A stretch of DNA of 64,000 nucleotides from a virus: the IMG/VR virus record IMGVR_UViG_3300037845_000036, positions 1 to 64,000 of that record; one strand, 5' to 3'. Made by a program: the position numbers and the translations under genes. The notes below the pieces were generated by a model. It was not told where the DNA came from and did not search any database. It was given only the letters and a program-made list of their open reading frames with translations. Shown in pieces: positions 1 to 36,902 of this stretch. How positions within the stretch are numbered: position 1 is the first letter of the stretch; the number at the start of each line of letters is the position of its first letter.

Positions 1-394
1 AGCATCGGGCAACTACGGGGCCGCGACAGCATCGGGCAACTCCGGAGCCGCGACAGCATCGGGCTACTCCGGGGCCGCGACAGCATCGGGCTACTCCGGA
101 GCCGCGACAGCATCGGGCAACTACGGGGCCGCGACAGCATCGGGCTACTCCGGAGCCGCGACAGCATCGGGCGACTCCGGAGCCGCGACAGCATCGGGCT
201 ACTACGGGGCCGCGACAGCATCGGGCTACTCCGGTAAAGTACGTGGTGCCAAGGGCTGCGCGCTGTTCCTAGTGTACCGAGATGCAAAGCGCGTGATCAA
301 ACACGCATGGGCAGGTATCGCAGGCCAAGACGGCATTAAGCCCGAGACGTGGTATAGGCTTGACAAGAACGGTAAGCCGCAGGAGTGCTCTTAA
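1..394 (+). CDS. Phage protein with GAATASG(N/Y/D)(S/Y) repeats (DUF7666-like), 5'-partial
   Basis: Frame 2 is open from the window start: ASGNYGAATASGNSGAATASGYS...KVRGAKGCALFLVYRD...AGIAGQDGIKPETWYRLDKNGKPQECS, TAA at 392-394. Not in the ORF track because there is no start codon. Confidence 0.85.
   Translation, partial: ASGNYGAATASGNSGAATASGYSGAATASGYSGAATASGNYGAATASGYSGAATASGDSGAATASGYYGAATASGYSGKVRGAKGCALFLVYRDAKRVIKHAWAGIAGQDGIKPETWYRLDKNGKPQECS
2..235 (+). repeat. 27-bp coding tandem repeat, ~9 copies
   Basis: Unit gcatcgggc(a/t/g)act(a/c)cgg(g/a)gccgcgaca starts at 2, 29, 56 ... 218. Confidence 0.97.
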
Positions 395-407
395 GTACTG
401 TTAATGG
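388..407. repeat. TTAA-N6-TTAA junction site
   Basis: CTC TTAA GTACTG TTAA TGG; contains the stop codon of the upstream gene. Confidence 0.85.
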
Positions 408-507
408 TGGGAAGGGCCTCGGAGCCGCTACCGGCGAACGGCTCGCTGTGTTTGCACTTGGCCCTTGGCAACGTCCCGGAATGCCCCACCACTCGCAAAA
501 AAAAGAT

Positions 508-536
508 TTGACATGTGCGATCTATGTTGATAGAGT
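508..536 (+). promoter_or_regulatory. Sigma70-type promoter
   Basis: TTGACA(508-513)-17 nt-TAGAGT(531-536), A-tract upstream, RBS AGGGAG before ATG 567. Confidence 0.7.
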
Positions 537-566
537 GACCCAGCGTCAGAAAGGGAGTTCAGCTAA

Positions 567-842
567 ATGAATCGCAAAAATCCACTCAACGAAATCAATC
601 GCCCCGAATTTCGCGATGGGTATCGGATGGGATATAGCAACACCCGGTCATCGCAATGCGGTGTTGCAAACCTCATCCCAAAACCTCGTCGCGCCGACAA
701 TCCGCTGTTCTATCGGGGATTCGTTGCCGGTCGTGCGGACGCAGAAGCCGGCGTCACCGATACGATGTATCGGCGATTTGGGCGCGATAAGATTAACGCA
801 GCGGATTGGGAAGATCATGCGCTTTTGCCGACTTGCTCATAA
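567..842 (+). CDS. Hypothetical protein
   Basis: 91-aa ORF with RBS and promoter. Confidence 0.7.
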   Translation: MNRKNPLNEINRPEFRDGYRMGYSNTRSSQCGVANLIPKPRRADNPLFYRGFVAGRADAEAGVTDTMYRRFGRDKINAADWEDHALLPTCS

Positions 843-930
843 AAGTTTGACAACAGCACAGGCGAGCCGCTAGACGCGACTCGCTCATGGTGTTGCCAAA
901 TCGGTACGCCATCAAAACGGGAGAAACACC

Positions 931-1902
931 ATGACCACAAAACACGAGGCCGTTATCGGCAGGTTTGACGCGCTGCGCGTAGACCCGCGCAAGCTGCGGG
1001 TGAAAGATGGCTACAACGTCCGCGACTTGGACGCGGCAGCCAATCGGGTAAGCCTCGATGTTCTGAAAGAGTCGATCCGCGAAAAGGGCGGCGTTATGAC
1101 GCCGCTGCGGGTGCGGGCGGTTGCCGGTGAGACCTATATCGTTGAGGGCCATCGGCGGCACAAAGTCGTTATGGAATTGATCGGCGAGGGAATGGAAATC
1201 GAATCCGTCCCGGCGATTATGGAAGAGCGCTATATCGATGATGCCGAGCGCACGCTGGGCCTTATCCTATCAAATAGCGGCGAGCCGCTATCGGAACCGG
1301 AAAAGGCCGAGGTCGTGCGCAGATTATTCAATATGGGATGGTCGCGCGAGAAGGTGCAAGCGCGCCTCGGCTACAAGACGCCGCAGACAATCGCCAATTT
1401 CGAGCTATGGCTGTCGGCGCCGGCTGAGATCAAGGAAGCGGTGCGCGCGGGCGAAGTCGCCTACTCGACAGCCGTTGAGATCACGCGGAAGTCGGATGGC
1501 GACGAAACCAAGGCAACCGAGACCTTGCAGCAAGCCCGAAAGACCGCGAAGGAAAGCGGTAGGAAGCGCGTAACGGGACGGAGCCTACCAAACGAACCCA
1601 AGCGCGGGAAGCGCTCTGCGGCGGCTGTAGAGACTGCCACGGCGGCAAAGCTGGCGCGCCAGGATGCCGACAAGGGCGCGGCTCCGTCCTATCAGGTCGA
1701 GAAAGCGCTAGCGCTGCTGTCTGAGGCCATGACGGCTAACTACACGCCCGAGGTTGCCGCAAAATCCTATGTGGCTCTGTCGGCCTCGCGGGTAGCCCGC
1801 ATCGCCGAATGGCTCATGGAGTTGGAGGATCATCTGCGGCACAAGGAAGACGACGCGTTCAAACCAACTTCCGGGGGCCTTCCCGCGTCGGCAACGACGT
1901 GA
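931..1902 (+). CDS. ParB/Srx-like N-terminal domain protein with HTH
   Basis: GYNVR...LKESIREKG.VMTPL.V...IVEGHRR ParB box II-like motif, then a helical HTH-like region. Confidence 0.8.
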   Translation: MTTKHEAVIGRFDALRVDPRKLRVKDGYNVRDLDAAANRVSLDVLKESIREKGGVMTPLRVRAVAGETYIVEGHRRHKVVMELIGEGMEIESVPAIMEERYIDDAERTLGLILSNSGEPLSEPEKAEVVRRLFNMGWSREKVQARLGYKTPQTIANFELWLSAPAEIKEAVRAGEVAYSTAVEITRKSDGDETKATETLQQARKTAKESGRKRVTGRSLPNEPKRGKRSAAAVETATAAKLARQDADKGAAPSYQVEKALALLSEAMTANYTPEVAAKSYVALSASRVARIAEWLMELEDHLRHKEDDAFKPTSGGLPASATT

Positions 1903-2382: not shown

Positions 2383-2402
2383 CCTTTAAGGTACAATAAC
2401 GG
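2383..2402. repeat. Junction site, 1 mismatch
   Basis: CCT TTAA GGTACA ATAA CGG fills the gap between stop 2382 and ATG 2405. Confidence 0.75.
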
Positions 2403-2906: not shown

Positions 2907-3353
2907 TCATGGTATATCCTTCCGTTTCCGTCGCCCGATTGGCGCGCTCGCGGGCCAATCTCCGGGATTACTGAAACCACGCACGATCCGTTCGGTACTT
3001 GGTTTGCTAAAGCGCAGCGGAGCATTCCACGATAGTAATATCTCGTGGACCTGTTCTAACGAACGGGCAATCCCTGTGTGATGCCCGAATGAGCCTGCCA
3101 TATCGCCGAATATCTCTTGGTCGGATGTGAGAACTCCTCGCAAAGATTTCATCTCGATCCATCCGACAAACCGATCGGGGGCGAGAAATAAAAAGTCCCA
3201 AATCCCGCGCTTGACACCCATCCCGTGCAGGATCTTGCCCCGCAGTTCGCCGCCGCCGCCGTGTCCGATGGCGCTGAAGTACCAAGGTGGGCACAATCCC
3301 CAACGCAGCCAATCGGCAACCGTTCGCTGCAGTATTTGTTCGGGATGCCGCAT
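2907..3353 (-). CDS. VRR-NUC domain nuclease
   Basis: E..LQ..V..WL...GVKRGIWD...WIEMKS..G.LT.DQ..F. Confidence 0.85.
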   Translation of the reverse strand: MRHPEQILQRTVADWLRWGLCPPWYFSAIGHGGGGELRGKILHGMGVKRGIWDFLFLAPDRFVGWIEMKSLRGVLTSDQEIFGDMAGSFGHHTGIARSLEQVHEILLSWNAPLRFSKPSTERIVRGFSNPGDWPASAPIGRRKRKDIP

Positions 3354-4255: not shown

Positions 4256-4690
4256 TTAGTCTGGGTTGACGCAACCCGGATGCGGGCGGCAAATCGGCTG
4301 CCCACCCTTGTCAATGTCACTCTGCCGCTCGCCAGCGTAGAGCGCAGTAAGCACATCGTGACAGTATTGGGAGGATTCGACGCAGACCTTTAGCGAGCCG
4401 CCGTCCTTAGTGGGTACAACCAATTCCCAATCGTTATCGCCGGTTCCAGCCGCCGCCGTGGCTAATACTACAAACAGAGCGAGCGCGGGCGCTAGAAACT
4501 TTTTACCTAGCGCGGCCATGCGCCGCGACGGTGTACGCATTTGGAATTTTGGTGGCTTCGAAGAACGTGACGATCGCAAGCAAATGATTTCATTACAAAC
4601 GAAAGTATTTGGCCCTACTAGCCTTCCCTGTCCAACAGCAAGATTGCGCCCACAAGAACCACAAACGCACGGTTCTTGGTTCGCGTTCAT
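4256..4690 (-). CDS. Hypothetical protein (true start uncertain; internal signal/TM segment)
   Basis: ORF abuts the recombinase stop; hydrophobic stretch followed by a Cys-containing domain. Confidence 0.55.
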   Translation of the reverse strand: MNANQEPCVCGSCGRNLAVGQGRLVGPNTFVCNEIICLRSSRSSKPPKFQMRTPSRRMAALGKKFLAPALALFVVLATAAAGTGDNDWELVVPTKDGGSLKVCVESSQYCHDVLTALYAGERQSDIDKGGQPICRPHPGCVNPD

Positions 4691-5559
4691 AGTCCCAATG
4701 TTCTAAGCGCCGGATTTTCTACCGCGCGTTGTGCTTCCACGTATCCGAGAGCTATCGAGACGGTTTTATGTCGGCTAAGAAGCATCACCTCTTCAATTTT
4801 GGCACCGTTGCGAAACATCGTCGTTATGCCGCCTCGGCGGAAACTGTGCGCCCCGATTTTAGTCGGATTGAATCCAATATGAGCCGCCCAGCGTTTGGCG
4901 ATTGTAGCAACCCTCCGCGCAGGCATGCGCGCATCGCCAGAGCGGAAGATCGGCCCGGCGGTGATGTCAGCATGCGACAGCCAGCGCTCTAAAGCCGCGA
5001 TAGGGCAATAGATTGTCGGGCTGCGCAGAATTGGGACCAACTCGCCCTTGCCGCTCTTATCAGTCTTGGAGCGCCGAACGTTAATTGTCATGCTGGCGTC
5101 GTCAATAACCAGGTCATCGCGGTTGAGCGCAACAATTTCGCTGCGGCGCATCATTGATGCGATGGCGAACAGGATTACGGCGCGATCTTGAAGGTTTTCG
5201 GGCGGAATTGCGTCAATGATCTTTTTAACGTCATCGACCATGAGTGCCGCCTTGGGAGTCTTTGCGGTGCCTTTCTGCCGGCGGATCTCCGCCCAAGTGT
5301 CCCGAATGACTGTTTCGTTGACGCGCAACGGCTTGCCTTTGATCTTGTGAACCGCTACCAGCATGGCTATGCGACCCTGCAGGCTTGAAGTAGATACCGT
5401 TGCCGAGCGGTCGGTGAGATAAGCGGCTACACTCGCGGGTTTAGCGGGGAACTGTTGTGCGGAATTGGTGACACACCAATTACACCAATCGCGCCAAAAG
5501 CTTTCGTAAGCCTGTCGAGTTGCGGGCGACCAGCGCCCTCTATCGAATAATTGCTCCAT
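4687..5559 (-). CDS. Tyrosine recombinase, Cre-like
   Basis: SAM-like N-domain (SPATRQAY...W..WC); catalytic motifs RRSEI, SKTD, HSFRRG, LSRH, GY all present. Confidence 0.93.
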   Translation of the reverse strand: MEQLFDRGRWSPATRQAYESFWRDWCNWCVTNSAQQFPAKPASVAAYLTDRSATVSTSSLQGRIAMLVAVHKIKGKPLRVNETVIRDTWAEIRRQKGTAKTPKAALMVDDVKKIIDAIPPENLQDRAVILFAIASMMRRSEIVALNRDDLVIDDASMTINVRRSKTDKSGKGELVPILRSPTIYCPIAALERWLSHADITAGPIFRSGDARMPARRVATIAKRWAAHIGFNPTKIGAHSFRRGGITTMFRNGAKIEEVMLLSRHKTVSIALGYVEAQRAVENPALRTLGL

Positions 5560-5595: not shown

Positions 5596-5599
5596 GATA

Positions 5600-6400
5600 T
5601 TAATAGGATTTAATGGCCGCAATCCGTTCGCCGATCCACCGCATGACGGGAACCGCCATGCTGTTGCCAAGCGCTCGGCAGCGTGGTCCATCGGCGGCGG
5701 GTTTGCCACGGTACCTAATCAGTGTGTAATCGTCAGGAAACCCTTGTAGGCGCTCGCACTCACGCGGCGTAAGGCGTCTAACCGCCGTGTTGGCCATAAT
5801 GGCAGTAGTGGTACTTGCCTCGCTTTGGCCCGGCGCCCGTGCCCGCAGTGGTGTATGGCAATTTGTTTCTTTGGCCCCGATAGTCGCCATCGCCCCAGTA
5901 ATGTCATAGGCAATAAGGTTGCCGCATTCACTCCCGGCTGGACCGCCGCTGTACTTTTCCCATTTGCTGACAACACAAGGGAGTTGTCTTTTATCCGGCA
6001 TGCGTTGATTTGCGCTACTCGCTGTCCAAGCGGGAAAGATTATATTTTCGGTTGTGTCTGCGTCGTTGCGGTATCCGCTACCTCCTGTAGAGCCTCCCGC
6101 AATTGGGCGGGCAACTCTTTCTCCCGCGTTTTGGCGCGGCGGAGAATCCCCGCGCAGGCTCTCGCGCTGACGCGGATGATTTGCCCCAATGAACCGGGTG
6201 ATACGGTGCGCATCTAAGTAGTTTTGACAATTGTGGCACTGACAGGGCTGACCCACGGCCCACGTATCGGTACCGCATAAATTTTTAGTAACCAGACAGC
6301 GCCGTTTCGCATCGGTAATTCGTTTGACCATTTTCACGTAGCGGCCAATGTTCCGCCGATACCTCTCCACTAGAGCGGGTCCATCATAATCTTCTTTCAT
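5600..6400 (-). CDS. Chimeric ORF ending in the C-terminal part of a C5-cytosine methyltransferase
   Basis: VRRLTPRECERLQGFPDDYT...ALGNSMAVPVMRWIG (motifs IX/X); no FxGxG or ENV motif upstream. Confidence 0.75.
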   Translation of the reverse strand: MKEDYDGPALVERYRRNIGRYVKMVKRITDAKRRCLVTKNLCGTDTWAVGQPCQCHNCQNYLDAHRITRFIGANHPRQRESLRGDSPPRQNAGERVARPIAGGSTGGSGYRNDADTTENIIFPAWTASSANQRMPDKRQLPCVVSKWEKYSGGPAGSECGNLIAYDITGAMATIGAKETNCHTPLRARAPGQSEASTTTAIMANTAVRRLTPRECERLQGFPDDYTLIRYRGKPAADGPRCRALGNSMAVPVMRWIGERIAAIKSY

Positions 6401-6423
6401 TTTTGTTTTCCCCTATTTTTCCT

Positions 6424-6654
6424 TTAAGTGCAATTAACGGAATCAAAAAAGAAGGCGTCTGGACCACAAAATTGACGAGGCGCATCCCGCATTATTGTTG
6501 GTTCAAGACATTCTCGGTTTCGTTCACAGAGCATCAATGAAAATCTGGTCTCACCCGTTATGTAGTCGGGGAAAGATACTTTAGCACTTGGATGAGTGCA
6601 CATATGCATGTTGTGCCACTCATTATGATGTTTGCAATCCTTACAAGCCCTCAT
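6424..6654 (-). CDS. Cys-rich hypothetical protein
   Basis: CKDCKH...CTHP...CERNR...CGPDA; bounded by junction sites. Confidence 0.8.
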   Translation of the reverse strand: MRACKDCKHHNEWHNMHMCTHPSAKVSFPDYITGETRFSLMLCERNRECLEPTIMRDAPRQFCGPDAFFFDSVNCT

Positions 6655-6682
6655 TTTCTAATTTCTCCGTCGTTAAGGGCGC

Positions 6683-6883
6683 TTAACGGTTATTGTTATA
6701 CCCATCGCCACTTTCAAATTCTCTTACTGCTTGTTCAAAGGCTTCGCCCATGCGAGTGAAGTCATTATGCGCAAAAGCCTCGGCGGCAATTTCACGCATT
6801 CGCCGGACCACCCACATTCCCTTGGGCGTAATCCGCATCGCCTGATCGTCGTCGTCATCCCGCGCCAATTCGTCGTCGCTCAT
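6683..6883 (-). CDS. Hypothetical protein
   Basis: RBS AGGGGG; bounded by junction sites. Confidence 0.75.
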   Translation of the reverse strand: MSDDELARDDDDDQAMRITPKGMWVVRRMREIAAEAFAHNDFTRMGEAFEQAVREFESGDGYNNNR

Positions 6884-6908
6884 AATTCCCCCTGTCCCTT
6901 AAAAGCGA

Positions 6909-7196
6909 TTAACGGTGTTGCGCGGCTTCTTGTTTGGCATTCATCGGTCGCGCGGGTGGGATACGCTTGTGAGCCGACTTAACCGGCGTGACGGTCAATA
7001 AATCGGGCGGTTTCCCACGCGCCGATAAATTGTTGTAGCAATGCACGGCGGTATGATCGGTCGTGCCATAGCGTTTGATGTGGCGCAGCAATGGCGCAAC
7101 CTTGTTGATTCCGCGCTGGCCTCGATTCTTATACGCCTCGCACCACTTCTTATTGCGACCGATTTTGCGACCTTTTTGAGATTTAGCGGCGGGCAT
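6909..7196 (-). CDS. Basic hypothetical protein
   Basis: RBS AAGGAGAG within/after the site; RKIGRNKKWC. Confidence 0.8.
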   Translation of the reverse strand: MPAAKSQKGRKIGRNKKWCEAYKNRGQRGINKVAPLLRHIKRYGTTDHTAVHCYNNLSARGKPPDLLTVTPVKSAHKRIPPARPMNAKQEAAQHR

Positions 7197-7208
7197 AAAG
7201 TCTCTCCT

Positions 7209-7559
7209 TTAACAAGCGTTAACGGTTGCCGCCGCTTTCAAGAACCATTCTTCGATTTCGTCGAAAGATTCCCGAGAGTTGTTATGCGCCGGAACCGCAA
7301 AAAAATGGACACTAGCCGCGTCTGCTAGACGGGCAACCGCTGCCCGCGCTTTATTCATGTCATAGTCTAAGGGGATAGATGCGACGAATTTCCCACCGAG
7401 TGCCTTGACGAGCGCTCCATTTGCGCAAACTCGTCCCTCTCCGTCGATGAGCCTCCCCCGGCACCAGCCATCACGACGCAGGATATCAAGTGCGTCCAAA
7501 ATAATTTTGGTTGTTTCGTCCAACCCCGTTCCGTCGAGTGGCATGGTCTTCCTCTCCAT
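7209..7559 (-). CDS. DUF6197-like protein (paralog of 22699-23052)
   Basis: ILDALDILRRDGWCRG...GRVCANGAL...HNN; true start probably MPLDGT (7544). Confidence 0.8.
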   Translation of the reverse strand: MERKTMPLDGTGLDETTKIILDALDILRRDGWCRGRLIDGEGRVCANGALVKALGGKFVASIPLDYDMNKARAAVARLADAASVHFFAVPAHNNSRESFDEIEEWFLKAAATVNAC

Positions 7560-7768
7560 TAAGAAACATTAACGGCGCGAAGCGTTTCACCCCATCCACC
7601 GCGATCAGCCGCCAACCCAAGCTCTATTAGATATCGAATAGCCGCCGCTCGGGTAGGGGTTGCGGGTTGGCGTAGTCGCCACTCGTCCACGCGAGCTAGG
7701 CGCTCAGCCGAAATCCGCATATCGAAACGCTCGTCTTGCATGGACGGACTATGCCGTACTTTTTTCAT
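7559..7768 (-). CDS. Ribbon-helix-helix (Arc/CopG-like) regulator
   Basis: RFDMRISAE.LARVDEWR..Q...PTRAAAIRYLIELGL. Confidence 0.85.
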   Translation of the reverse strand: MKKVRHSPSMQDERFDMRISAERLARVDEWRLRQPATPTRAAAIRYLIELGLAADRGGWGETLRAVNVS

Positions 7769-10011: not shown

Positions 10012-10275
10012 GTGTATGTTCACAATATGAGCATGGGAACAAGGGAAGAGACCAAAGGCAGCGACGAATGGGATATGTCCAGTCGTCGGGCGCGCCGCGT
10101 TTGCGGGAGCAAGGCAGGCCGTTGGTCAATAGTGAAGGCTAAATTTTGGCGGCGAGTGCGCAAGTCTTGGCGGCTTCGCGCTATTAATGATCTTCGGAAT
10201 TATCCCTTTCGCGTAGGTAGCGCTATGGGTAGTATGTCGCCCGACAGGCCGGCGCAAAAACAGGATGCGTCCTGA
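10012..10275 (+). CDS. Small basic protein whose native stop was displaced by the IS
   Basis: Removing the IS restores ...RAINDL-TAA; the current C-terminus reads into the IS end. Confidence 0.65.
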   Translation: MYVHNMSMGTREETKGSDEWDMSSRRARRVCGSKAGRWSIVKAKFWRRVRKSWRLRAINDLRNYPFRVGSAMGSMSPDRPAQKQDAS

Positions 10276-10362
10276 TGGCGCACCCTCGCATCAGGAAGGG
10301 TACGGGTGGAGCTAACTCGCTAGAACCGTTATCGCCGTCCTATGAGCTTTCCGAGATTGAAA

Positions 10363-11064
10363 TCACGCCCGAGATGATCGGGGTTGGCGTTGACGAGATG
10401 CTTGCTTGGCCTGAGACAGTAGCTTTGCGAGAGGACTGTGTAGCAAATATTTATCGGGCAATGGTGGAGGCCAAAGTTCGGGCCTATCCCACCGCGCGGC
10501 CCGCCGATGCCAATCGCCGAGGCGCATTGTCACGGAAATGATATAATTAGCTTCTTCCTTCAAAAGCTCTAAAGAAATACCGTGAAGCGGAATTTCTACG
10601 ACTTTACCTTGTCCCGCTCTATAACGATCTTTGGAATAACTACCATCCATCGCAGAAAGACCCGTCCAAGCTCCGTGTAACAGGTTGTTTCGATCTGCAT
10701 TTGCTTGCTGCAAACCACTGTAAATTGCCTCAGCGGATTTGCGCAACTGGTCATACGCAACAATTCTCGCATTTTGCGCGGAAGTGAGTTGATGCCCTCT
10801 CGGAAAAATCTCGAACGGTTGCGATGCCAGAATATAGAACAGTTCAATTCTTTGATTAGCATTCTGCATGAGCCATTCGAGAGCCGCCCCCTCGCGGTGC
10901 GACATCCGCATCATTTGTCTAAGGGTTGCCGTAAGCTGACGCTCTAGATCGGCGAACGCGACCGCAATGGCCCCGAGCGGGCGATAGAGCTTTCTGAAAA
11001 TAGGCGGCGGCTCGACATCTTTCCATTTAAGAGCGGGGATCTGTTCGTTCTTAATCCACGCCAT
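10363..11064 (-). CDS. IS passenger: helical protein with RxxxxH motif (HEPN-like)
   Basis: LGAIAVAFADLE...ANADRNNLLHGAW. Confidence 0.6.
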   Translation of the reverse strand: MAWIKNEQIPALKWKDVEPPPIFRKLYRPLGAIAVAFADLERQLTATLRQMMRMSHREGAALEWLMQNANQRIELFYILASQPFEIFPRGHQLTSAQNARIVAYDQLRKSAEAIYSGLQQANADRNNLLHGAWTGLSAMDGSYSKDRYRAGQGKVVEIPLHGISLELLKEEANYIISVTMRLGDWHRRAARWDRPELWPPPLPDKYLLHSPLAKLLSQAKQASRQRQPRSSRA

Positions 11065-11078
11065 GCTATCCTCCCCTT

Positions 11079-11252
11079 ATGAACGAGCAGGATAGCCGCA
11101 AGAGCAAAGACGGCAACGAGCAATACAGCGACGAGGAAGCGGAGCGCCGAGCTACGGACGCGCTGCGCCGCACGTTGACGACGCCATACAAGCCGCAGAA
11201 AGACATGGTCGGTAAGACGGGTCGGCCGTCACGCCGCAAATCGCCAGCGTGA
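11079..11252 (+). CDS. IS passenger: 57-aa charged protein
   Basis: MNEQDSRKSKDGNEQYSDEEAERRATDALRRTLTTPYKPQKDM...; stop overlaps the GTG of the next gene. Below the ORF-track cutoff. Confidence 0.65.
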   Translation: MNEQDSRKSKDGNEQYSDEEAERRATDALRRTLTTPYKPQKDMVGKTGRPSRRKSPA

Positions 11253-11635
11253 AGCCCAAACCGAAGAAGGATAAGGGCGATTCTGAGTGGAGAACCGGAT
11301 TCTCTATCGTGGCCATTTGCTGGTGCTGCCTCGGCGCGGCTGAAGCCGCCGACAAATCTCCCGCGTTTATTTCCGGTGCAGAATTGCAACGGCTATGTGA
11401 TCACGGGCAAGATAGCGACACCATATCATGTTTACGGTATATAGCGGGTGTTATAGATAGCGCTAATGCTATTGCTTCGCCTCGGATACTCTGCCTCCCG
11501 GATCTTAACATGAGGCAAATCCACGCAATAATAGTTCAGGACATGCGATCTCACCCTCAAACTCTAGGGTATTCCGCCGCTAGTGTGATCCTAGGCGTGC
11601 TCGCAACGACCTTCCCCTGCGCACCTACACAGTAG
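11249..11635 (+). CDS. IS passenger: Rap1a/Tai-like T6SS amidase-immunity protein
   Basis: Signal-like segment, then SGAELQRLC...CLRYIAGVID...CLP...HP...AASVI...L...FPC. Confidence 0.8.
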   Translation: MKPKPKKDKGDSEWRTGFSIVAICWCCLGAAEAADKSPAFISGAELQRLCDHGQDSDTISCLRYIAGVIDSANAIASPRILCLPDLNMRQIHAIIVQDMRSHPQTLGYSAASVILGVLATTFPCAPTQ

Positions 11636-12159
11636 AAAGTTGTCAAAGGGGAATATCGCTATTGAAAAGCTGTCTAGACAATAGATGGCTACCGTTTTAG
11701 AATGGGAGAGGTGTATATTAATCAGGCGAGCTAACTGTGCCTAATACCTTCGCATCCATCCCCCTTTGTACAGAAGACGAACTCGAACGCCATCAAGCTG
11801 TTTTTGAGGTAACTTATATTGACGGAAAGCCAATCACCAGCATGAGGCGAGGACGCTTATGGAAAAAGAATATCAAGAACAGCCCTATCAAGGATAGGGC
11901 AGTTGAAAATGTTATCTTGAAGTAAAGGAATGGAACCGTCCTTTACCTTCTCGCATATTCCAGCGATATTAGGCAACTCGCTCGTAGCCCATCGCGGCGG
12001 ATTTAAGCTACTGACGCTTACATGGATTTCAGCGGCACATGCTGGGCATATCACCTTCTTCATGGAGTCGCTCCCTTTAGTCGCGTAGCGATTCACGATT
12101 TGTCTAAGCATTCGATGAACCGCCGCAGCCGCGCAATCTCGCGCCGCAGTCGGTTGCGT

Positions 12160-13083: not shown

Positions 13084-13178
13084 GGCCTGAGCCTCTAAAA
13101 TCTGGCGATATCCTACCCCTTGTGGCTACCTATGTCAAAGGGATAATTCCGATGATCTTTAACGGCATAGTGGGGCGG

Positions 13179-22682: not shown

Positions 22683-22698
22683 GTGCTCTCTCCTTCCT

Positions 22699-23052: not shown

Positions 23053-23074
23053 TAGCTTTCTCCTTTAAGTCCGA

Positions 23075-23641: not shown

Positions 23642-23644
23642 CTT

Positions 23645-23965: not shown

Positions 23966-23978
23966 AGGGGGTTCTCCT

Positions 23979-24185
23979 TTAAGAAGCCTTAACGGTTAGC
24001 GGCACGGAGGAATCCATTCCCCAATCGCGCCGATGTGCATCAGCGACGGTTTTGAGGTCGTCGATGCAGTCAAAACAGATATACGTTGGCATGCCACCAG
24101 CATGGACGCCAATCATTCCGACCGTCTCTAGATGTGGGTGCGAGCAACGGATGCACGTGGGGACGCGCGGCGGCCCTTTGCTCAT
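23979..24185 (-). CDS. ClpX-type C4 zinc-finger-like small protein
   Basis: CIRC...MI...G...YICFDCID. Confidence 0.6.
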   Translation of the reverse strand: MSKGPPRVPTCIRCSHPHLETVGMIGVHAGGMPTYICFDCIDDLKTVADAHRRDWGMDSSVPLTVKAS

Positions 24186-24388
24186 TCTGCCGCACTCTCA
24201 TGTTTTGCGTTGGCTTTCCGTTCAGCTTTCATATGGCCAATGACTATCTCAACGATTTGAGGAACCGGGAGGCGCCCCCGTGCCCAGCGCGAAACTGTCT
24301 CACGCTGCCGCCCGACGATCGTGGCGAAGTCTCCATGAGTCATTTCAAGCTCTACCAGGGCGACCCGGAACTCTAGCGCTGTCATCAT
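24182..24388 (-). CDS. XRE-type HTH regulator
   Basis: EFR.AL..L.MT..DFA..VG....TVSRWARG..PVP. Confidence 0.85.
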   Translation of the reverse strand: MMTALEFRVALVELEMTHGDFATIVGRQRETVSRWARGRLPVPQIVEIVIGHMKAERKANAKHESAAE

Positions 24389-25448: not shown

Positions 25449-25699
25449 CATGGCAAGTGCCCGGCGCGCAGGGGAACTTCGTCCACTGGCCGCAAGAGCT
25501 TGATGATCACGAGGCTGAGATCGACTCGTGGGAGTCGGTGACGGTTGATTATATTCCACCGCCGCCGCCCGCGCCCTGGTGGCGCGCGCCGCTGTTATGG
25601 GGGTTGGCGATGGTGGGTCGCATCAATCGCGAGGCAGTGTGGGGCATGAGCGCCGGCGTCATATTGATTATTACGCTGTTCGCGCTGTTCTGCCTTTAA
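25445..25699 (+). CDS. Small membrane protein
   Basis: C-terminal TM segment; stop lies in a site. Confidence 0.7.
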   Translation: MTWQVPGAQGNFVHWPQELDDHEAEIDSWESVTVDYIPPPPPAPWWRAPLLWGLAMVGRINREAVWGMSAGVILIITLFALFCL

Positions 25700-25712
25700 T
25701 GGAGCTTAAAGG

Positions 25713-26165
25713 ATGATCCAACTCGATCCCAATAGTCTCGTGACCAAATACTTTCTGTGGCAATGCGATCACAACGTCTTCGTCACCAACGCAGATCCGG
25801 TGGATAATAAATATGTTCGTCGGAAGGGTGCATATTACTTAGAACACGGCACGACACTATGCCATATTTTTTGGGCCACACTATGGATGCCATTGGTGGC
25901 TGCCGCCATTATCGGATTTCTTCTCGTAATGCTGGCTGCGCTTCATGTTTCCGCATATGAGGCGTTTAGTGCAAAATTTGGAATTGCCGCTTTCTTCGCG
26001 CCCGAGTTTTTCGTGCTTGGATTTGTTATCGCCGCTGCTCTTTTGACCCTGATCTTGATGGGTGCTGGGAAGCTCCCGTTTTGGAAATTGGTTTGGTTGT
26101 ACCTAAAGGGGATCAAAAATCGGATTTGCCCCTTGGTTCAATTCGACGCCGTTAAGGGGCATTAA
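25713..26165 (+). CDS. Membrane protein
   Basis: TLCHIFW, two TM segments, RICPLV; site-bounded. Confidence 0.8.
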   Translation: MIQLDPNSLVTKYFLWQCDHNVFVTNADPVDNKYVRRKGAYYLEHGTTLCHIFWATLWMPLVAAAIIGFLLVMLAALHVSAYEAFSAKFGIAAFFAPEFFVLGFVIAAALLTLILMGAGKLPFWKLVWLYLKGIKNRICPLVQFDAVKGH

Positions 26166-26169
26166 CGCT

Positions 26170-26499
26170 ATGTCAAGGCACTCGAACAATGATCGAGACA
26201 ATAAAATAATAGAATTTTATCGGACGCATAATTTGCGACAGACTGGCGCTGAATTTGGGATTAGCCACTGGCGGGTAAGCCAAATTCTTCAGGCACATAA
26301 GACTGCTCGGCGTGAAAAGCGAGAATGGTTGGAACCGCTTGATTGCCATCCCGACCCGTGCATTGAAGGTGCGGCAAAAGCTATGCATCTAGCGGATGTT
26401 CCGCCCGCTACTAGGGCGTGGAACCGACTTTATAGGAAGCGCCGTGACCGTTATCGTGCGATGGCTAGCGCGGCTCTTGCGAGCGTTAAGAGGAGTTAA
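26170..26499 (+). CDS. HTH-containing protein
   Basis: RD..I......LRQTGAEFGIS..RVSQIL. Confidence 0.75.
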   Translation: MSRHSNNDRDNKIIEFYRTHNLRQTGAEFGISHWRVSQILQAHKTARREKREWLEPLDCHPDPCIEGAAKAMHLADVPPATRAWNRLYRKRRDRYRAMASAALASVKRS

Positions 26500-26619
26500 A
26501 GGTGAGCGCTGAGACCACGGAATGGCCGGGTCGGATACGACTCTCGATGAATAGTCCTCGCCATAGTGAGGTACGATGGCGTCGGTTGTGCGGCCGTGTT
26601 TCTCAGCGCTCTCCTTTAA
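26496..26619. ncRNA. Candidate structured non-coding unit between two sites
   Basis: Terminal inverted repeat ttaaaggtgagcgctgaga / tctcagcgctctcctttaa plus internal hairpins; no credible ORF. Confidence 0.45.
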
Positions 26620-26640
26620 ATCAATTAAAGGCGCACAATC

Positions 26641-26782: not shown

Positions 26783-27043
26783 ATGTCCATGTTGGTTGCC
26801 GAGGAAATCGAGGTTGGTGTGCGCGGGCGCAACATCACTGTGCGTGGCGTCCGCGTGCCCGATGCGAAAAACACTTATGAGCGAACAGAAGAAATTTCCT
26901 TGGATCTGACTTTGGCACGAGAGTTGTTTCGTCTGCTGAGTGCGGCAATCCCGTTAGCAGAAACATTCGGACCAATCAGATCTGATGGGGATGTAATTTC
27001 GGCGCTGCATGAAGTTGTCAATCCCGCCGTTAAAGTAGCTTAA
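26783..27043 (+). CDS. Hypothetical protein
   Basis: RBS AGGAG; ends in a site (AVKVA*). Confidence 0.7.
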   Translation: MSMLVAEEIEVGVRGRNITVRGVRVPDAKNTYERTEEISLDLTLARELFRLLSAAIPLAETFGPIRSDGDVISALHEVVNPAVKVA

Positions 27044-27049
27044 AGGCAA

Positions 27050-27794: not shown

Positions 27795-27824
27795 GCCGTT
27801 AACACCACTTAAAGGAAGAGAAAA

Positions 27825-28568
27825 ATGCCCCTAGACAGCACAAAGTGGCAAGAACTTGCGGCTGAATTGGAATCGGTCGAACCGTTCGCTAGTCCCACTC
27901 TGACGCTGCCAAAGAGCGCGGCGGCAAACCCGTCCCCGTTTCCGCGCATTATGTTTTTGCCTCTTTTCGTGGCGTTCGGAGCGCTTGGGTTTATAGGCGG
28001 TCTCATCATTTTTGAGACACCCAGCCCGCCGTCGCCAAATGTCCTGGTCGGCATGCCGGATGCGGATGCGCCATCCATTTCTCCCTCGGTCCCCATTGGT
28101 TTAACCACGACAGCGAGCGGGGTACTGGTAAATACAGGGATTACAATCGGGAGCGGCACTACGGGTACGGTTATATATATGGCTTCTACGGGCGTACCAT
28201 ATGGCGGCATCATTACTGTCGATGGCACTACCATCACAAGTAATAGCGGTAATTTTATGGAACACGCAATACCACCGCACGGCACTGATTATGATGTTAT
28301 GAGTGACAGCTATTATGATATGGACGGGAACTCAGTCGCGGATGGTCACGCCAATGGTGCGCGTTATCACGTCATCAGTGAAGGGTATTACGGCGCTGGC
28401 GGTGCCCTCCTAGAGCGTCGAGTATCAATGCATATCGTCGATCCGCTCTATTGCTCGCCGGGGCACGATCGCCCGATGGTCGCGAGCGGTAATGACCCTG
28501 TGCCGGGGCCTGTGTACCAGCAAATGCAGGGCAACGCACAATTCGCGTCTGTCGAGCCTAGCTTTTAA
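27825..28568 (+). CDS. Single-TM protein
   Basis: TM segment followed by a Thr/Gly/Ser-rich domain; site-bounded. Confidence 0.75.
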   Translation: MPLDSTKWQELAAELESVEPFASPTLTLPKSAAANPSPFPRIMFLPLFVAFGALGFIGGLIIFETPSPPSPNVLVGMPDADAPSISPSVPIGLTTTASGVLVNTGITIGSGTTGTVIYMASTGVPYGGIITVDGTTITSNSGNFMEHAIPPHGTDYDVMSDSYYDMDGNSVADGHANGARYHVISEGYYGAGGALLERRVSMHIVDPLYCSPGHDRPMVASGNDPVPGPVYQQMQGNAQFASVEPSF

Positions 28569-29135
28569 CTTCTCTTAAAGTAAAGGTTTGATGCCAACGT
28601 TTGCCGCAGACGATTACGACGCCATTCGGGCACGGATGCATGAGTTGCGTGCAGCACCCATATCAAATATGGCGGCGCCCGCATCGGGACAGCGGTGCAG
28701 TCAGAACTATGATGGGAAAACGTGTGGGTTTGGCTGCGTTTTAGCACTCACGACTGGCATAATGTGCCGCAACTTCGGTAGCAAAATCTTGGCCCCCGAC
28801 TAATGGAAAAGCCGAAAGACCAACAACTCAAAAGTATCGATCATTCCGTCCGCGCATACGATAGCGCACGGCTGACGTGGCGACGCGAGCAGACTGAGTA
28901 CGGTTGGGGATTCTGGTATCTGATCCGTATAGATCCGCCGGCCGATGCCTAAGCCGAAACCGATAGAACAATTGTTCACTGAGTGCGGGATTTGTGGCGC
29001 TTCCGTTCATGTCAACGGTTTGTCCCAACATCTACGAGCGCACGGAGTGGCGAAGGACAGCGATGATGCAACCGTGGCGCACGCTCACCGTGTATGGAAG
29101 CGCATCATAGAGCATCAGAAGAAGGCAAAACTGAT

Positions 29136-29342
29136 ATGAGCGACGATCGCTACGACGTGTTAGGCGTGAATCTCCGCTCAAAGACGGTGCGGATCATATC
29201 GCGGGATCTGAGTGCGCCGAATGCCGATGCCCTTGTGAAGCTCGCAGTCATGCGCCGGGGCATCGAAGACGAGTTCTTTGTGGAATAGCCAGTTGGCCAG
29301 TACCGCGACGGCGACATATTCGGAACCGTTAATCAACCTTAA
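29136..29342 (+). pseudogene. Small protein with internal TAG
   Basis: MSDDRYDV...EFFVE*PVGQYRDGDIFGTVNQP*; the frame continues exactly to the TAA of the site. Confidence 0.6.
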
Positions 29343-29353
29343 AGGAGAGGGAA

Positions 29354-29764
29354 TTGTCACGCTCTGGTTACACCGATGACTTAGGCAGCGAATGGGCGCT
29401 GATTTGCTGGCGCGGGGCAGTTGCTAGCGCCATCCGAGGAAAGAGAGGCCAAGCCTTCCTACGGGAGATGCTAGACGCGCTCGATGCGCTAGAGGCAAAG
29501 CGTCTTATTGCAAACGATTTGGTTCGTGAGGGCGAACTGCTCAGCGATGGTGTCTGCGCTATTGGTGCGATCGGCATGGCCCGTGGAATCGAAATGTCTG
29601 AGATTGATCCCGAGGATCGAGACACAATCGCCGGCACCTTTGACGTAGCTCCCGCTCTAGCCGCAGAAATTATGTATGAGAACGACGAGGGTTCTTGGCA
29701 AGAAACGCCAGAGCAGCGGTTTGCGCGAATGCGGGCATGGGTTGACAAGCAGATACGCCGTTAA
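29354..29764 (+). CDS. Conserved phage hypothetical protein
   Basis: MSRSGY.DD...WRGAVASAIRGKRGQAFLRE...EI.YENDE...TPEQR..RMR.WV. Confidence 0.85.
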   Translation: MSRSGYTDDLGSEWALICWRGAVASAIRGKRGQAFLREMLDALDALEAKRLIANDLVREGELLSDGVCAIGAIGMARGIEMSEIDPEDRDTIAGTFDVAPALAAEIMYENDEGSWQETPEQRFARMRAWVDKQIRR

Positions 29765-29787
29765 CAACAATTAAAGGAACCATCCAA

Positions 29788-29991
29788 ATGGATATCCGGC
29801 ATATCGAAGAGCGTCACATGATCGAATATCGTGGGCAAAGTGTCTCTATTGGGGTGACTGATACTGGCGAGTGGGTTGCGGTACGCTCTGTGACCCCGGC
29901 ATTTTTGATGATGGGCGACACCCCAGAGGAAGCGGAAGAAAAGGCACGACATGCCCTCGACTTTTGGGCCGTTGAACGATTTCCCCGTTAA
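29788..29991 (+). CDS. Small HicB-N-like protein (tentative)
   Basis: W.A.....P.....GDTPEEA...A..AL; site-bounded. Confidence 0.55.
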   Translation: MDIRHIEERHMIEYRGQSVSIGVTDTGEWVAVRSVTPAFLMMGDTPEEAEEKARHALDFWAVERFPR

Positions 29992-30017
29992 GGACTATTA
30001 AAGGAAGGAGAAGGCTA

Positions 30018-30344
30018 ATGCCTTTTGATGGAACAGAGACTCCGGCGTTGCGGCGCGCTCGTTTGATTGAAGTGCTCCGTTCGCCGATGCCAAACACTTG
30101 GAAATGGGATTTCGGCGTGACGGAGGAAGAACATGAATGCGGCACCGCTGGGTGCGCGTTGGGCCTCGCCCGGCAGTTGTGGCCAGAGATGAATGATTTT
30201 CACGCGATAAGAGATCGCGAGGCCGCATTCTTTGGGATAACAAAAGACCAAGCCTTCAGTGTCTTTTTCGGTCCATATCGCGGATGTTTTGCAAGCGTAA
30301 CACCTGAGATGGTGGCCGATCGGCTTGAAGCAATTGACCGTTAA
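30018..30344 (+). CDS. Hypothetical protein (related to 23645-23965)
   Basis: MPFDGT...LIEVLR...CGTAGCALG...TPEMVADRLEAID. Confidence 0.8.
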   Translation: MPFDGTETPALRRARLIEVLRSPMPNTWKWDFGVTEEEHECGTAGCALGLARQLWPEMNDFHAIRDREAAFFGITKDQAFSVFFGPYRGCFASVTPEMVADRLEAIDR

Positions 30345-30359
30345 CTGGCCTTAACGTCA

Positions 30360-31049: not shown

Positions 31050-31344
31050 CGCTGCTAAGATTGTTGACGATATCATCCGAGGATGGGCCGGTTTAACCGG
31101 GGCGGAGGATGAAATCGTGATGCAAGAAAGCATCGCCAGGGAGAAATTTACTCGTGCAATTGAAGAAGCAGAGGCGCGCGGGCGAGCGGTGGGGAAGGAG
31201 GTTATTGAGGCGGCTCAAGGGGTCGTAGCCGCCCACGCCGCGATGCAACAGCGTGGCGGTTCAGTTGTCCCTATAGAATTACATGAGGCCACCGCGGAAT
31301 TGCAAGAAACTCTTGATTCCTTCTCAACTCTTAACGTGAATTAA
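31042..31344 (+). CDS. Hypothetical protein
   Basis: Ends in site 31331, convergent with 31331-31555. Confidence 0.7.
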   Translation: MTDAAKIVDDIIRGWAGLTGAEDEIVMQESIAREKFTRAIEEAEARGRAVGKEVIEAAQGVVAAHAAMQQRGGSVVPIELHEATAELQETLDSFSTLNVN

Positions 31345-31579
31345 AGGCGATTACCGCAGACACGCCAATTACGATCAGCATAAGGAAAGCACCGAACACC
31401 ATCGAAAGCACATAATCGCTGCGAGATGGTGCCGGGGCTTCCCAATCTTCTCTGTTGCCATCGAACACGGTTATCGGCCCCAATCTCGGAAAACAATCCA
31501 TACAGTCAGCACAAACAGCGGCAGCAACGGCACAGTGTAGAACAACTGATACCACTTTGGCCGGTGCAATCTATTCAAT

Positions 31580-34790: not shown

Positions 34791-35245
34791 GCCATAGCCT
34801 CTAGTAATAGATATAGATCCATCTCTTGTTCCCGACGTTTTGTCAATCCAGCAAGCGCGACAAGTACCCCATCGACATGAGATTTATTCCAAAATAGAAA
34901 TGCATCGGCGGCGCCTTGATATTTACCCGCTCTGTGAAGCCGTAACACAGTAGATCCCCGGAATGCGCCAATGCCAATATTGAAAGTTAGGCTCACCATA
35001 GCAGAAAATTGATTGTCTGTCGTAGATACGTCGCTGGTTACACCATTGACGCCCTCACACGCCGATGAAACATCTGCAGCTAGCAAGGCATCAGCCTGCT
35101 CTTCGGTAATCGTTGTCCCCATCGTGGCAGGAGTGTGGCCCCAACCAATAGTGGGGATCCCTGCCGGATCAAGGTAAGCGTTTAGCTGGAGACTCTCGCC
35201 AGTTTTGATGATAGCGAGACCGGCAGCATTTATTTGTCGCATCAT
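34787..35245 (-). CDS. Endolysin, GH24 lysozyme
   Basis: E-x8-D-x5-T triad (ESLQLNAYLDPAGIPTIGWGHT), NQF.A.VSL.FNIG, GL..RR..E. Confidence 0.95.
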   Translation of the reverse strand: MMRQINAAGLAIIKTGESLQLNAYLDPAGIPTIGWGHTPATMGTTITEEQADALLAADVSSACEGVNGVTSDVSTTDNQFSAMVSLTFNIGIGAFRGSTVLRLHRAGKYQGAADAFLFWNKSHVDGVLVALAGLTKRREQEMDLYLLLEAMA

Positions 35246-35293
35246 CGCGTAAAGCATCGCCGGGGTGCCGAAGCACCCCAGCAAGCCTTCCGA

Positions 35294-35653
35294 TTACGGG
35301 CCAGGCGCGGTAGGCGCAGGCTGTTGCCCGGTAACGGCGTCCGTGCCAACGATGTCATCGATCACGACAACCGCATAGTTGACGGTGATTACGAGTTCGG
35401 TATCGCCGGCACTGTCGGTCACGGGGATCACCATGCCCATCGTGTTGGCGCTAGGCTGCGTCAGCGCGTTGATCGTGAGCAAATTGGCGTTGATGGCAAC
35501 ATTGATCGCCGGACTCGGCGAAGTCGCCGTAAACGTATCGGTGGGCGGAACGGGTACCTGAGTGCTCGTCCCATCCACAACGAGACCGAGGGTCACGGTA
35601 TGAACGTCGGTCGCCAAGAGATTGATGGTAAGGGTCTGCGGTGTGCCTGCCAT
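35294..35653 (-). CDS. Thr-rich beta-sandwich-like protein
   Basis: RBS GAAAGGAAG before MAGTPQ. Confidence 0.7.
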   Translation of the reverse strand: MAGTPQTLTINLLATDVHTVTLGLVVDGTSTQVPVPPTDTFTATSPSPAINVAINANLLTINALTQPSANTMGMVIPVTDSAGDTELVITVNYAVVVIDDIVGTDAVTGQQPAPTAPGP

Positions 35654-35915
35654 GGTGGTCTTCCTTTCAGGGGGGTGGTGGTTGCGTTGTAATAACATCG
35701 CTGACAGCTACGATTTGGAATTTCTGTCTCTCAACGTCCTTGATAATCCGGTCAACCCGCAGAAATAATTTATATAGCATCCAACCAATTTCAATTTCTG
35801 CGTCGGTCGCGTTCTCCCAAGGGTCCGCGATGCCGTGCTCATCGTAAGCTTGGACAGGCGGGTTCATTCTCAATGCATAACACGTTTCTTGTGTTCACGC
35901 TACCTCGGCTTATAC

Positions 35916-36473
35916 CTAGGGTAATTCCGTCCTCCGCGACAATTCTTTCGCCTGCGCGGCATCGCCGATTTCCGCCTCAACGATTTTCATTTGCGCTAGC
36001 CTATCTGCAAGGATTGCCTCAAGTTCGATTATGTGTTTTTCGGTGATGGCTACCGCATCTAACTGCGCTGCTGTCGGTTCATGCCCCATCGCCTTAGCCA
36101 TTTCGATAATGGTATTCAGCCCAACAAGGGTTATCTTGGTTTGGTCTAATTCCCCTTGGCGAGCAGCGGTCATATCGCTATTAACCAATGTATGAATCTG
36201 CTTCAACTGAGAAGCCGTATCTGCGGCATTGGTGCGCGCGACCGCCGCCACTTCATCCGTCTTGGCAATCGTAAGCTGCTGTGAACTATGCAATAATTTA
36301 GCCGCTATCGCAGCCTGTTCTGCCACGGCGTCCGCCTTGGCGGCGATGGCATCCTGCCTAGCAAAGTCTTCTACTCTTTCAGCGCGGCGTGTACGCCCCT
36401 GTAGCATAGTCAACAAAACTGGCGACGCAAAAGCAAGTCCCCCAACGATCAGCACCGCGATACCCTGATCCAT
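35916..36473 (-). CDS. N-terminal TM coiled-coil protein (lysis region)
   Basis: TM segment followed by an Ala-rich coil; IHTLVNS motif. Confidence 0.75.
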   Translation of the reverse strand: MDQGIAVLIVGGLAFASPVLLTMLQGRTRRAERVEDFARQDAIAAKADAVAEQAAIAAKLLHSSQQLTIAKTDEVAAVARTNAADTASQLKQIHTLVNSDMTAARQGELDQTKITLVGLNTIIEMAKAMGHEPTAAQLDAVAITEKHIIELEAILADRLAQMKIVEAEIGDAAQAKELSRRTELP

Positions 36474-36882
36474 GCACTAAACCTTGACCATGCAATTCAG
36501 CACTATCGCTAACCCTATCGCTAAGAGGATAGCAGTCACAACTTCACTTCGCGTCACAATCCTGTTCCATCCGCGTGACGACATTGAGTTGCGGACGAAG
36601 CGCCCGCGCTGGTCACGATCGGCATCAGTTTTCATGATTGACAGATTTGTAGAGCATCGCCTATATTCCCTGCCACCTACGGGACGTTGGCTGTGGTGGC
36701 CATCGAAGCGGGTCTAACCAGCCCGGTAGTTCTCGCGAAACCGGATGCATACGGTCTAGCATCAGAGAATCGTCCCCATATTCGGCACTACGGGTGAGCG
36801 GACGCCTAGCGACCAATCGCCCATTCCGGGGGCAGCCAACAACCGTTGGAGCGGTGGGCTGCCTTCCGTGTTTTTGCGCATG

Positions 36883-36902
36883 CCTTTAATCATGCTTAAC
36901 GG
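36883..36902. repeat. Isolated junction site
   Basis: CCT TTAA TCATGC TTAA CGG between the virion and lysis blocks. Confidence 0.85.

Follow-up and report, generated by a model that had tools for sequence, protein, structure and literature searches.

The first 64,000 nucleotides of IMG/VR virus record IMGVR_UViG_3300037845_000036 (hereafter, the window) come from a soil phage that is a distant relative of the P22-like podoviruses of Alphaproteobacteria. Its early/accessory region is cut into units of one or a few genes by short dyads of the form TTAA-N6-TTAA. All intact sites lie in this region, where they separate small early genes. The window holds 31 exact copies, whereas dinucleotide-preserving shuffles averaged 0.63 copies and never exceeded 3. 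The complete record, which totals 97,058 bp, holds 34 copies, compared with 3 for a reversed-pattern control; the three copies beyond the window are at 88269, 95991 and 96384. Since a tandem repeat array with a period of ~54 bp is common to both ends of the record (window 1-234; genome 96868-97058), the genome is probably circular or permuted and complete, in which case the three extra sites adjoin the start of the window. The array itself may be an iteron-type origin.

The spacing of the dyad is strict. When pairs of TTAA were tabulated by their start-to-start distance, 34 were found at distance 10 and 0-2 at each of the other tabulated distances (8-27), with none in the whole record at distance 11, equivalent to an N7 spacing. 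Besides the intact dyads, there are 4-5 degenerate copies and one copy split by an insertion sequence (IS), for a total of ~40. The degenerate set includes one-mismatch copies with good flanks at 2386, 21030, 96246 and 41732, and a copy with a 5-bp spacer at 26616. No intact copy was found between 37 and 88 kb, which contains the virion genes and an intein-bearing terminase; the one-mismatch copy at 41732 lies inside a virion gene.

The sites of the window are listed here along the sequence, with the three bases on either side of the dyad. The leftmost (388..407, plus strand) reads CTC TTAA N6 TTAA TGG. A leftward group on the minus strand begins at 5597..5616, between the C5-methylase and recombinase genes, where the second TAA terminates a 266-aa open reading frame (ORF) and the recombinase gene begins 40 nt further on. 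It continues with 6421..6440 (CCG..AGG), 6670..6689 (CCG..CGA), 6896..6915 (CCG..GGG), 7206..7225 (CCG..AGG) and 7556..7575 (CCG..TGG). The site at 17990..18009 occupies a convergent junction and is fully symmetric (CCG..CGG); a 129-aa and a 131-aa ORF on opposite strands both stop in it. Minus-strand sites resume at 18395..18414 (CCT..TGG), 19240..19259 (TCT..AGG), 19404..19423 (ACT..CGG, the sole copy with reversed arm polarity), 20134..20153 (CCG..AGG), 20809..20828 (weak flanks, ACT..AAG), 21377..21396 (CCG..TGG), 22236..22255 (CCG..CAG), 22696..22715 (CCG..AGG), 23062..23081 (CCG..AGG), 23642..23661 (ACG..AAG) and 23976..23995 (CCG..AGG). The rightward, plus-strand array comprises 25693..25712 (CCT..AGG), 26149..26168 (CCG..CGC), 26483..26502 (GCG..AGG, with a spacer, GAGGAG, that itself resembles a ribosome-binding site), 27027..27046 and 27796..27815 (both CCG..AGG), 28562..28581 (weak flanks, CTT..AGT), 29326..29345, 29758..29777 and 29985..30004 (all CCG..AGG), 30338..30357 (CCG..CGT) and 31328..31347, which marks the end of the rightward early operon and a second convergent junction. 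The last site (36883..36902, minus strand, CCG..AGG) borders the virion block. The degenerate copies in the early region of the window are TTAA-N6-ATAA with flanks CCT/CGG (2383..2402), TTAT-N6-TTAA at a gene junction (21027..21046, minus strand) and the 5-bp-spacer variant CCT TTAA N5 TTAA AGG (26613..26631, plus strand).

Read along the direction of transcription, the consensus of the 20-base site is R-CCG-TTAA-N6-TTAA-AGG-A(G). Its symmetry reaches CC/GG at -3,-2 / +15,+16, that is, arm position 7, and the spacer is free; conservation of the arms stops at -4 / +16, so that each arm spans only 7-8 bp. The base beside TTAA is C in 25 out of 34 upstream arms and A in 21 out of 34 downstream arms, and the C-then-A arrangement occurs in 16 sites and its reverse in one (P = 0.0003). 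In 27 out of 34 copies, the upstream ORF terminates at one of the two TAAs of the site, and in ~26 out of 34 the site is followed 3-25 nt later by the start of the next ORF. The downstream arm and its flank together read AAAGGAG, the ribosome-binding site of the next gene, which we take to be an extended form complementary to the alphaproteobacterial 16S tail. By our estimate, the fraction of ORFs stopping in sites is near that expected from random reading frames, and the stop role therefore looks incidental. The copy at the convergent junction (first T of the dyad at 17993) has no downstream gene on either side, yet it is fully symmetric; the dyad thus exists independently of the ribosome-binding site and is not a mere by-product of it.

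Much of this layout had been described in a first-pass annotation of the window, made from the letters alone, and most of that description stands. All 31 of the positions it listed are exact matches, its rough chance expectation of under one copy agrees with the shuffles, and the scan of the whole genome that it suggested as a check gave the 34 copies and control count reported above. Of the variants it named, those at 2386 and 21030 differ from the intact dyad by one mismatch and have good flanks, and that at 26616 is the N5 copy. The IS-split copy is real, most sites are at gene junctions as it had stated, and every spacer differs from the others. The virion block, where it had noticed no copies, is free of intact ones and carries the one-mismatch copy at 41732. 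One statement needs correction: the arms described as inverted do have dyad symmetry, although the site is polar with gene direction rather than simply inverted. Neither this polarity nor the combined use of the site as stop codon and ribosome-binding site had been recognised in that annotation.

Splitting a further site is an IS1595-family element with passenger genes (10195..13151, ~2.96 kb), bounded by 38-nt terminal inverted repeats. The left half of the site (10181..10194) consists of CTA TTAA and the target duplication ATGATCTT, and the right half (13152..13165) of ATGATCTT followed by TAA CGG. Excising 10195-13151 together with one copy of the 8-bp duplication ATGATCTT rebuilds a perfect TTAA-N6-TTAA with spacer TGATCT and flanks CTA/CGG, which places the insertion exactly symmetrically in the spacer. 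The transposase (12160-13083) matches PF12762 and PF12760 and is 93% identical to one in an alphaproteobacterial metagenome-assembled genome (MAG). Among the passenger ORFs is one for a Rap1a-like (type VI immunity) protein (11249-11635).

Several familiar functions were considered for the sites and rejected. Stable RNA or DNA hairpins are not formed: the mean folding energy is -3.3 kcal/mol, compared with -3.4 kcal/mol for random 26-mers of the genome. Action as RNA processing hairpins was among the outcomes that the first-pass annotation had named as counting against its own proposal; RNase III-type processing sites are rejected on the same random-level folding energy and the absence of pairing past the arms; the flanks beyond the 7-nt arms are unpaired, and positions -1/+14 pair in only 13 out of 34 copies. 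The sites do not resemble terminators, as they have no T-tracts and the region shows no excess of terminator-like sites. Nor do they resemble promoters: the ribosome-binding site is part of the dyad site, 3-25 nt separate the site from the start codon, and promoter-like sites are not enriched in the region. A host regulon motif was rejected because the 3.9-Mb alphaproteobacterial MAG, a candidate representative of the host lineage, contains no CCGTTAA-N6-TTAA and only two core dyads. The motif would be phage-specific if this MAG, with its near-identical IS transposase, represents the host lineage.

Adjoining the site at 5600 is the gene of a Cre/Xer-like tyrosine recombinase of 290 aa (4687..5559, minus strand; PF00589), the candidate enzyme for the sites. 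Its best NCBIfam matches are XerA, XerC and XerD, all far below the cut-off, while its best PDB match is Cre (E = 4e-12). A large protein database yielded 28 homologues (44-62% identity). When 22 of these were aligned with the phage protein, 23 sequences in all, the R, K, HxxR, H and Y catalytic positions, assigned by our own reading of the motifs, proved invariant, and on this evidence the active site is intact. The same operon contains a gene resembling endonucleases and Holliday-junction resolvases (2907..3353, minus strand; phrog_5702 and phrog_93). The early region also encodes a ParB-like protein, two DNA methyltransferases, a ClpB-like ATPase and a RecE/Cas4-like exonuclease, and a helix-turn-helix regulator of 68 aa (24182..24388, minus strand) heads the leftward early operon. 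No lox-like sites with 13-bp arms were found near the recombinase gene, the sole match in the genome being an inverted-repeat cluster at 90.5 kb. This cluster, (C)AGGGACAT..ATGTCCCT(G), lies at genome positions 90545-90680, just upstream of a D5-type primase-helicase gene, and could be an origin or an operator. Among the more distant homologues of the recombinase (30-37% identity) are many encoded on large alphaproteobacterial plasmids; no such dyads were found near these homologues, and the plasmid-borne ones have no TAA-N6-TTA beside their genes beyond chance.

Metagenome and viral contigs were scanned with the recombinase alignment, and two further complete phage genomes, G002 (65,299 bp) and G003 (59,383 bp), were retrieved. 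Their recombinases are 56% and 50% identical, respectively, to that of the phage under study (G000). G003 contains 21 dyads of the form CC[C/T]-TTAA-N6-TTAA-[A/G/C]GG (control 1). TTAA-TTAA dyads are absent from G002, which has instead 13 copies of CCN-[A/T]TAA-N6-TTA[T/A]-NGG (control 1), mainly ATAA-N6-TTAT with some hybrids. The strict N6 spacing thus holds in both genomes (13 and 21 sites), and the dyads are again confined to the early region, where they occupy gene junctions and precede GGAG and a start codon. The dif sites of Escherichia coli, Bacillus subtilis and Frankia have ATAA-N6-TTAT as their inner core (PMC3025954), and the TTAA/TTAA of G000 is a one-base variant of the dif inner arms ATAA/TTAT. 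In scans of IMG/VR with the pattern, blind to the recombinase, only G003 and G002 were recovered as multi-site contigs; the remaining matches were single and at chance expectation.

The only families common to all three phages are the recombinase, the primase-helicase and an ejection protein, of which the recombinase is the best conserved (50-56%). Their virion modules are otherwise unrelated, and the helix-turn-helix and ParB-like proteins of G000 have no counterpart in G002 or G003. The resolvase-like gene is also found downstream of the recombinase gene in G002 (42% identity). DNA homology of G000 to the other two phages is limited to coding cores, too distant for mapping synteny breakpoints, and no close relative suitable for this purpose was found in the phage collection, in IMG/VR or in 401 alphaproteobacterial genomes. 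G002 encodes a protein with a GapR-like DNA-binding domain (L136:5998-6765) and another with a sigma-70 region 4 domain, which fits an alphaproteobacterial host. Because of this GapR-like protein and the 93% identity of the IS transposase to the MAG copy, the host of G000 is probably an alphaproteobacterium. G002 also contains a transposase fragment, 73% identical to the transposase of the IS in G000, but the IS remnant there was uninformative.

Some of the units bounded by sites are related to one another. A DUF6197 gene is present in three copies in G000 and one in G003, all bounded by sites on both sides and with unrelated neighbours. In G000, copy a lies between the sites at 7556..7575 (upstream) and 7206..7225 (downstream), copy b between 23062..23081 (upstream) and 22696..22715 (downstream), and copy c between 29326..29345 (upstream) and 29758..29777 (downstream). 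Copies a and b are 59% identical in protein sequence (BLASTP), and the interval over which their DNA is homologous is delimited by the upstream and downstream sites. A second pair of paralogues, also bounded by sites, is distributed between the two divergent arrays (23645-23965, minus strand; 30018-30344, plus strand).

All 34 spacers in G000 are unique, and none is repeated within any of the three genomes. Similar spacers (Hamming distance <=1 on either strand) were also scarce within genomes, with 3 pairs observed, whereas 8.6 were expected when genome labels were permuted (P = 0.010) and 9.2 when columns were shuffled (P = 0.013); a test on the mean nearest-neighbour distance gave P = 0.007. 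This depletion is the outcome expected of selection against recombination among the sites of one genome, and is not predicted by operator or hairpin models.

A comparable set of dyads was found in the Bacillus phage SPbeta (NC_001884), which has 34 copies of TAAAA-N6-TTTTA (control 2), all with unique centres; N6 is the sole enriched spacing, with 0-3 copies at the others between N3 and N9. SPbeta encodes one tyrosine recombinase beside its serine integrase. As in the phage under study, its dyads combine TAA..TTA with a strict, unique 6-bp spacer, but they have other arms, belong to an unrelated phage lineage and host phylum and are not fused to a ribosome-binding site, nor are the recombinases closely related. 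No description of these junction dyads was found in the literature searched. Given SPbeta, the phenomenon may be wider than the lineage of the soil phage.

The reading we prefer, tentatively and at somewhat less than even confidence, is that the sites are module joints recognised by a recombinase, with heterospecific spacers, which double as stop codon and ribosome-binding site. Symmetric arms around a centre fixed at 6 bp suggest a protein dimer acting on duplex DNA. The recombinase is favoured as that protein because it is the best conserved of the shared families, no candidate regulator is shared by the three phages and TAA/TTA separated by N6 is the Xer layout. Also in its favour are the recovery of G003 and G002 alone by the recombinase-blind scans, the site-bounded paralogues, the scarcity of similar spacers and the symmetric copy at 17993. 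The phage's own Cre/Xer-like enzyme would bind and cut the sites as double-stranded DNA joints, with one monomer on each of the inverted arms (CCN-WTAA and TTAW-NGG) and the 6 bp between them as the crossover region, as at dif or lox. With a private spacer at each joint, no productive recombination would take place inside one genome, and deletions and inversions would be avoided. A joint would recombine only with a joint carrying the same spacer on a co-infecting relative; alternatively, rare mismatched events could leave a Holliday junction to be finished by a resolvase or by replication. Over time, whole gene units would be exchanged, duplicated and relocated with their reading frames unbroken. 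As the arms would also serve as expression signals, with TAA stops for the incoming gene and AAAGGAG of the downstream arm as the ribosome-binding site of the next, a unit placed between two joints would be expressed.

The first-pass annotation had proposed recombination sites that define mobile cassettes. The partition of the accessory region into units, the intact recombinase gene adjoining a site, the recurrence of the sites in G002 and G003 and the DUF6197 units all support part of that proposal. However, the arms are short, no product was seen in contigs, and a simple excise-and-insert cassette model does not follow, since unique spacers would block ordinary pairwise recombination within one genome. 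A bolder form of our reading sees in the sites a version of recombinase-mediated cassette exchange that arose in nature. Co-infecting relatives would swap accessory genes in register and in frame through dozens of addressed joints, mutually incompatible and placed one at each junction, while their genomes stay stable; the SPbeta-type dyads would be an independent instance. We regard this form as possible but doubtful.

A number of observations weigh against the recombinase reading. The conserved 7-8 bp per arm compare with 11-13 bp in dif and lox, and no site has a same-spacer partner within its genome. Between genomes, only one spacer is common (G002 44613 and G003 951; 0.13 expected), and the genes adjacent to it are non-homologous. 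Several small genes common to the phages are not flanked by sites in both. The spacer-dispersion test was devised after seeing the data, its effect and P values are modest, and in SPbeta the over-dispersion is a non-significant trend (P = 0.07). The association with the recombinase is drawn from three genomes of partly common ancestry (exonuclease, nucleotidyltransferase and primase), two of which were first found through the recombinase itself. Furthermore, the plasmid-borne distant homologues suggest ordinary single-site multimer resolution. Finally, two soil metagenome runs contain the region, with contigs identical to the window, and no RNA run was listed as containing it; no recombinant, deletion or circle junction was found at the sites in these two runs, a null result that is uninformative because contigs cannot reveal rare recombinants.

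An operator array, in which a dimeric phage regulator would bind the dyads at many junctions to shut off the early operons or block their read-through, is an unlikely explanation, albeit one with clear precedents. The stoperators of mycobacteriophage L5, the P1 C1 operators and the conserved inverted repeats of phiC31 are comparable operator sets, and two 4-bp half-sites one helical turn apart around a free centre are the layout bound by helix-turn-helix dimers, as in the 434 operators (ACAA-N6-TTGT). L5 has ~30 short intergenic sites oriented with transcription, and the ~35 intergenic copies studied here are likewise polar and restricted to early operons. The regulator at 24182..24388, which heads the leftward operon, would be the candidate binder, and a ParB-like protein is also present. 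Nevertheless, neither protein has a counterpart in G002 or G003, so that no candidate regulator is common to the three phages, and the sites do not overlap promoter-like elements. The L5 stoperators, which are asymmetric and 13 bp long, are bound by a known repressor, whereas the present sites are dyads. An operator array would also leave the site-bounded paralogue units unexplained, and the within-genome depletion of similar spacers is not expected from it.

Still less probable, in our view, is a translational junction element, by which weak pairing of the stop-codon arm with the ribosome-binding arm in mRNA, or a phage RNA-binding protein on the two UUAA boxes, would couple translation of each early gene to its predecessor or repress it later, in a manner similar to T4 RegA/RegB targets. 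This accounts for the polarity of the sites (16 to 1, P = 0.0003), for the upstream stop within the site (27 out of 34) and the start codon 3-25 nt on, for the presumed complementarity of AAAGGAG to the alphaproteobacterial 16S tail and for the same relation to GGAG and ATG in G002 and G003. It does not account for hairpins no more stable than random 26-mers, with -1/+14 paired in only 13 out of 34 copies, or for copies at convergent junctions without a downstream gene. Coupling needs neither a strict 6-nt loop nor a TAA that is invariant even when unused as a stop, and by our estimate the share of ORFs stopping in the sites is close to that of random frames. In addition, neither the phage's own late operons nor the candidate host-lineage genome makes use of the element.

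Passive homology joints are about as improbable as a translational element. Under this explanation, the sites would be 20-bp expression linkers between which genes are shuffled through microhomology and the RecE/Cas4-like exonuclease pathway, with no dedicated enzyme. The site-bounded paralogues and the mosaic sharing of small genes among the three phages are consistent with it, a RecE-like exonuclease is encoded, and the PeSL-mediated modular shuffling and mini-circles of T4-type phages provide a precedent (PMC2839356). PeSL cassettes are also repeats between small non-essential genes of hyperplastic regions, but they combine a sigma-70 promoter with a terminator hairpin and act through homology, whereas the present sites have neither promoter nor terminator function and a fixed dyad geometry. 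Homologous exchange would have very little identity to work with here, 7 + 7 bp broken by a unique spacer, and passive joints leave the dyad symmetry, the fixed N6 and the over-dispersion of spacers unexplained.

Docking sites for a host DNA-binding protein such as the cell-cycle regulator CtrA (TTAA-N7-TTAA) are very improbable: the half-site is TTAA, the host is probably alphaproteobacterial (on the IS transposase match and the GapR-like protein of G002), N6-spaced CtrA sites have been reported at Caulobacter ctrA P2 and podJ P1 (PMC4287350, PMC11264516) and dense CtrA boxes occur in lytic-deferment phages of Alphaproteobacteria (PMC9437464), but G000 has no N7 copies, G002 has ATAA/TTAT in place of TTAA, the conserved CC/GG flanks lie outside the CtrA box, the sites lie where genes end and not within promoter gaps or terminal repeats, and the 3.9-Mb MAG with the near-identical IS has only two such dyads.

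The closest known parallels of the sites are systems from each of which they differ. The pdif modules of Acinetobacter plasmids, acted on by XerC/XerD, are likewise genes bounded by two-armed sites with a 6-bp centre (PMC6449649); the same module is found in varied contexts, as with the four DUF6197 units, and the inner arms ATAA/TTAT are identical to the G002 variant. However, pdif sites are 28 bp long with 11-bp arms and use the host XerCD, whereas the arms described here span 7-8 bp and are unlike dif outside the 4-bp core. Moreover, the candidate enzyme is phage-encoded and Cre-like, and each genome carries 13-40 sites, which occupy almost all junctions of the arrays and double as stop and ribosome-binding site.

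Integrons share arrays in one orientation of mostly single small genes, palindromic sites and a nearby tyrosine recombinase. Their attC sites, in contrast, are 55-140 bp long, act as folded single strands and have conserved R and L boxes, compared with 20 bp and no extended pairing here; IntI has about 320-340 aa with an extra domain, compared with a Cre/Xer-like protein of 290 aa; and no attI/Pc platform is evident in the phage. Cre/loxP of phage P1 is similar in its palindromic arms around a short asymmetric spacer, and Cre is the closest structural relative of the recombinase by sequence, but P1 has a single loxP with 13-bp arms and an 8-bp spacer, whereas the phage has dozens of sites with a 6-bp spacer. 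Mutually incompatible, unique spacers are the cassette-exchange principle of engineered heterospecific lox sites, as proposed here. The sites thus miss a defining feature of each of pdif, integron, Cre/lox and PeSL systems. No description of such sites in phages, or of a natural genome-wide set of heterospecific sites, was found in the literature searched.

Phage genomes are mosaics that exchange at gene boundaries, and the role of dedicated linkers has been debated since the modular theory of phage evolution. A defined 20-bp joint and a specific recombinase occur together in three phages that otherwise look unrelated, which puts the question within reach of a direct test. If the recombinase reading is correct, the joints would represent a new viral route for trading accessory genes, such as those for defence and counter-defence, and would provide a ready-made set of orthogonal recombination sites.

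Some other features of the genome were noted. Outside the dyads, TTAA is under-represented, with 235 occurrences in the whole genome (68 of these in sites) compared with ~259 expected from base composition. Within the early region, a plus-strand block (13340-17712) encodes a 541-aa protein of no known family, a ClpB-like double AAA+ ATPase (14962-16980) and a 242-aa protein, and no junction sites were found inside it. The large subunit of the terminase (genome 83289-86183, minus strand) is split by an intein with a LAGLIDADG homing endonuclease domain. In the virion block, the products of two adjacent genes (56194-58341 and 58620-60146) have in common a 185-residue N-terminal segment with 60% identity, which looks like a duplicated tail-fibre or spike anchor.

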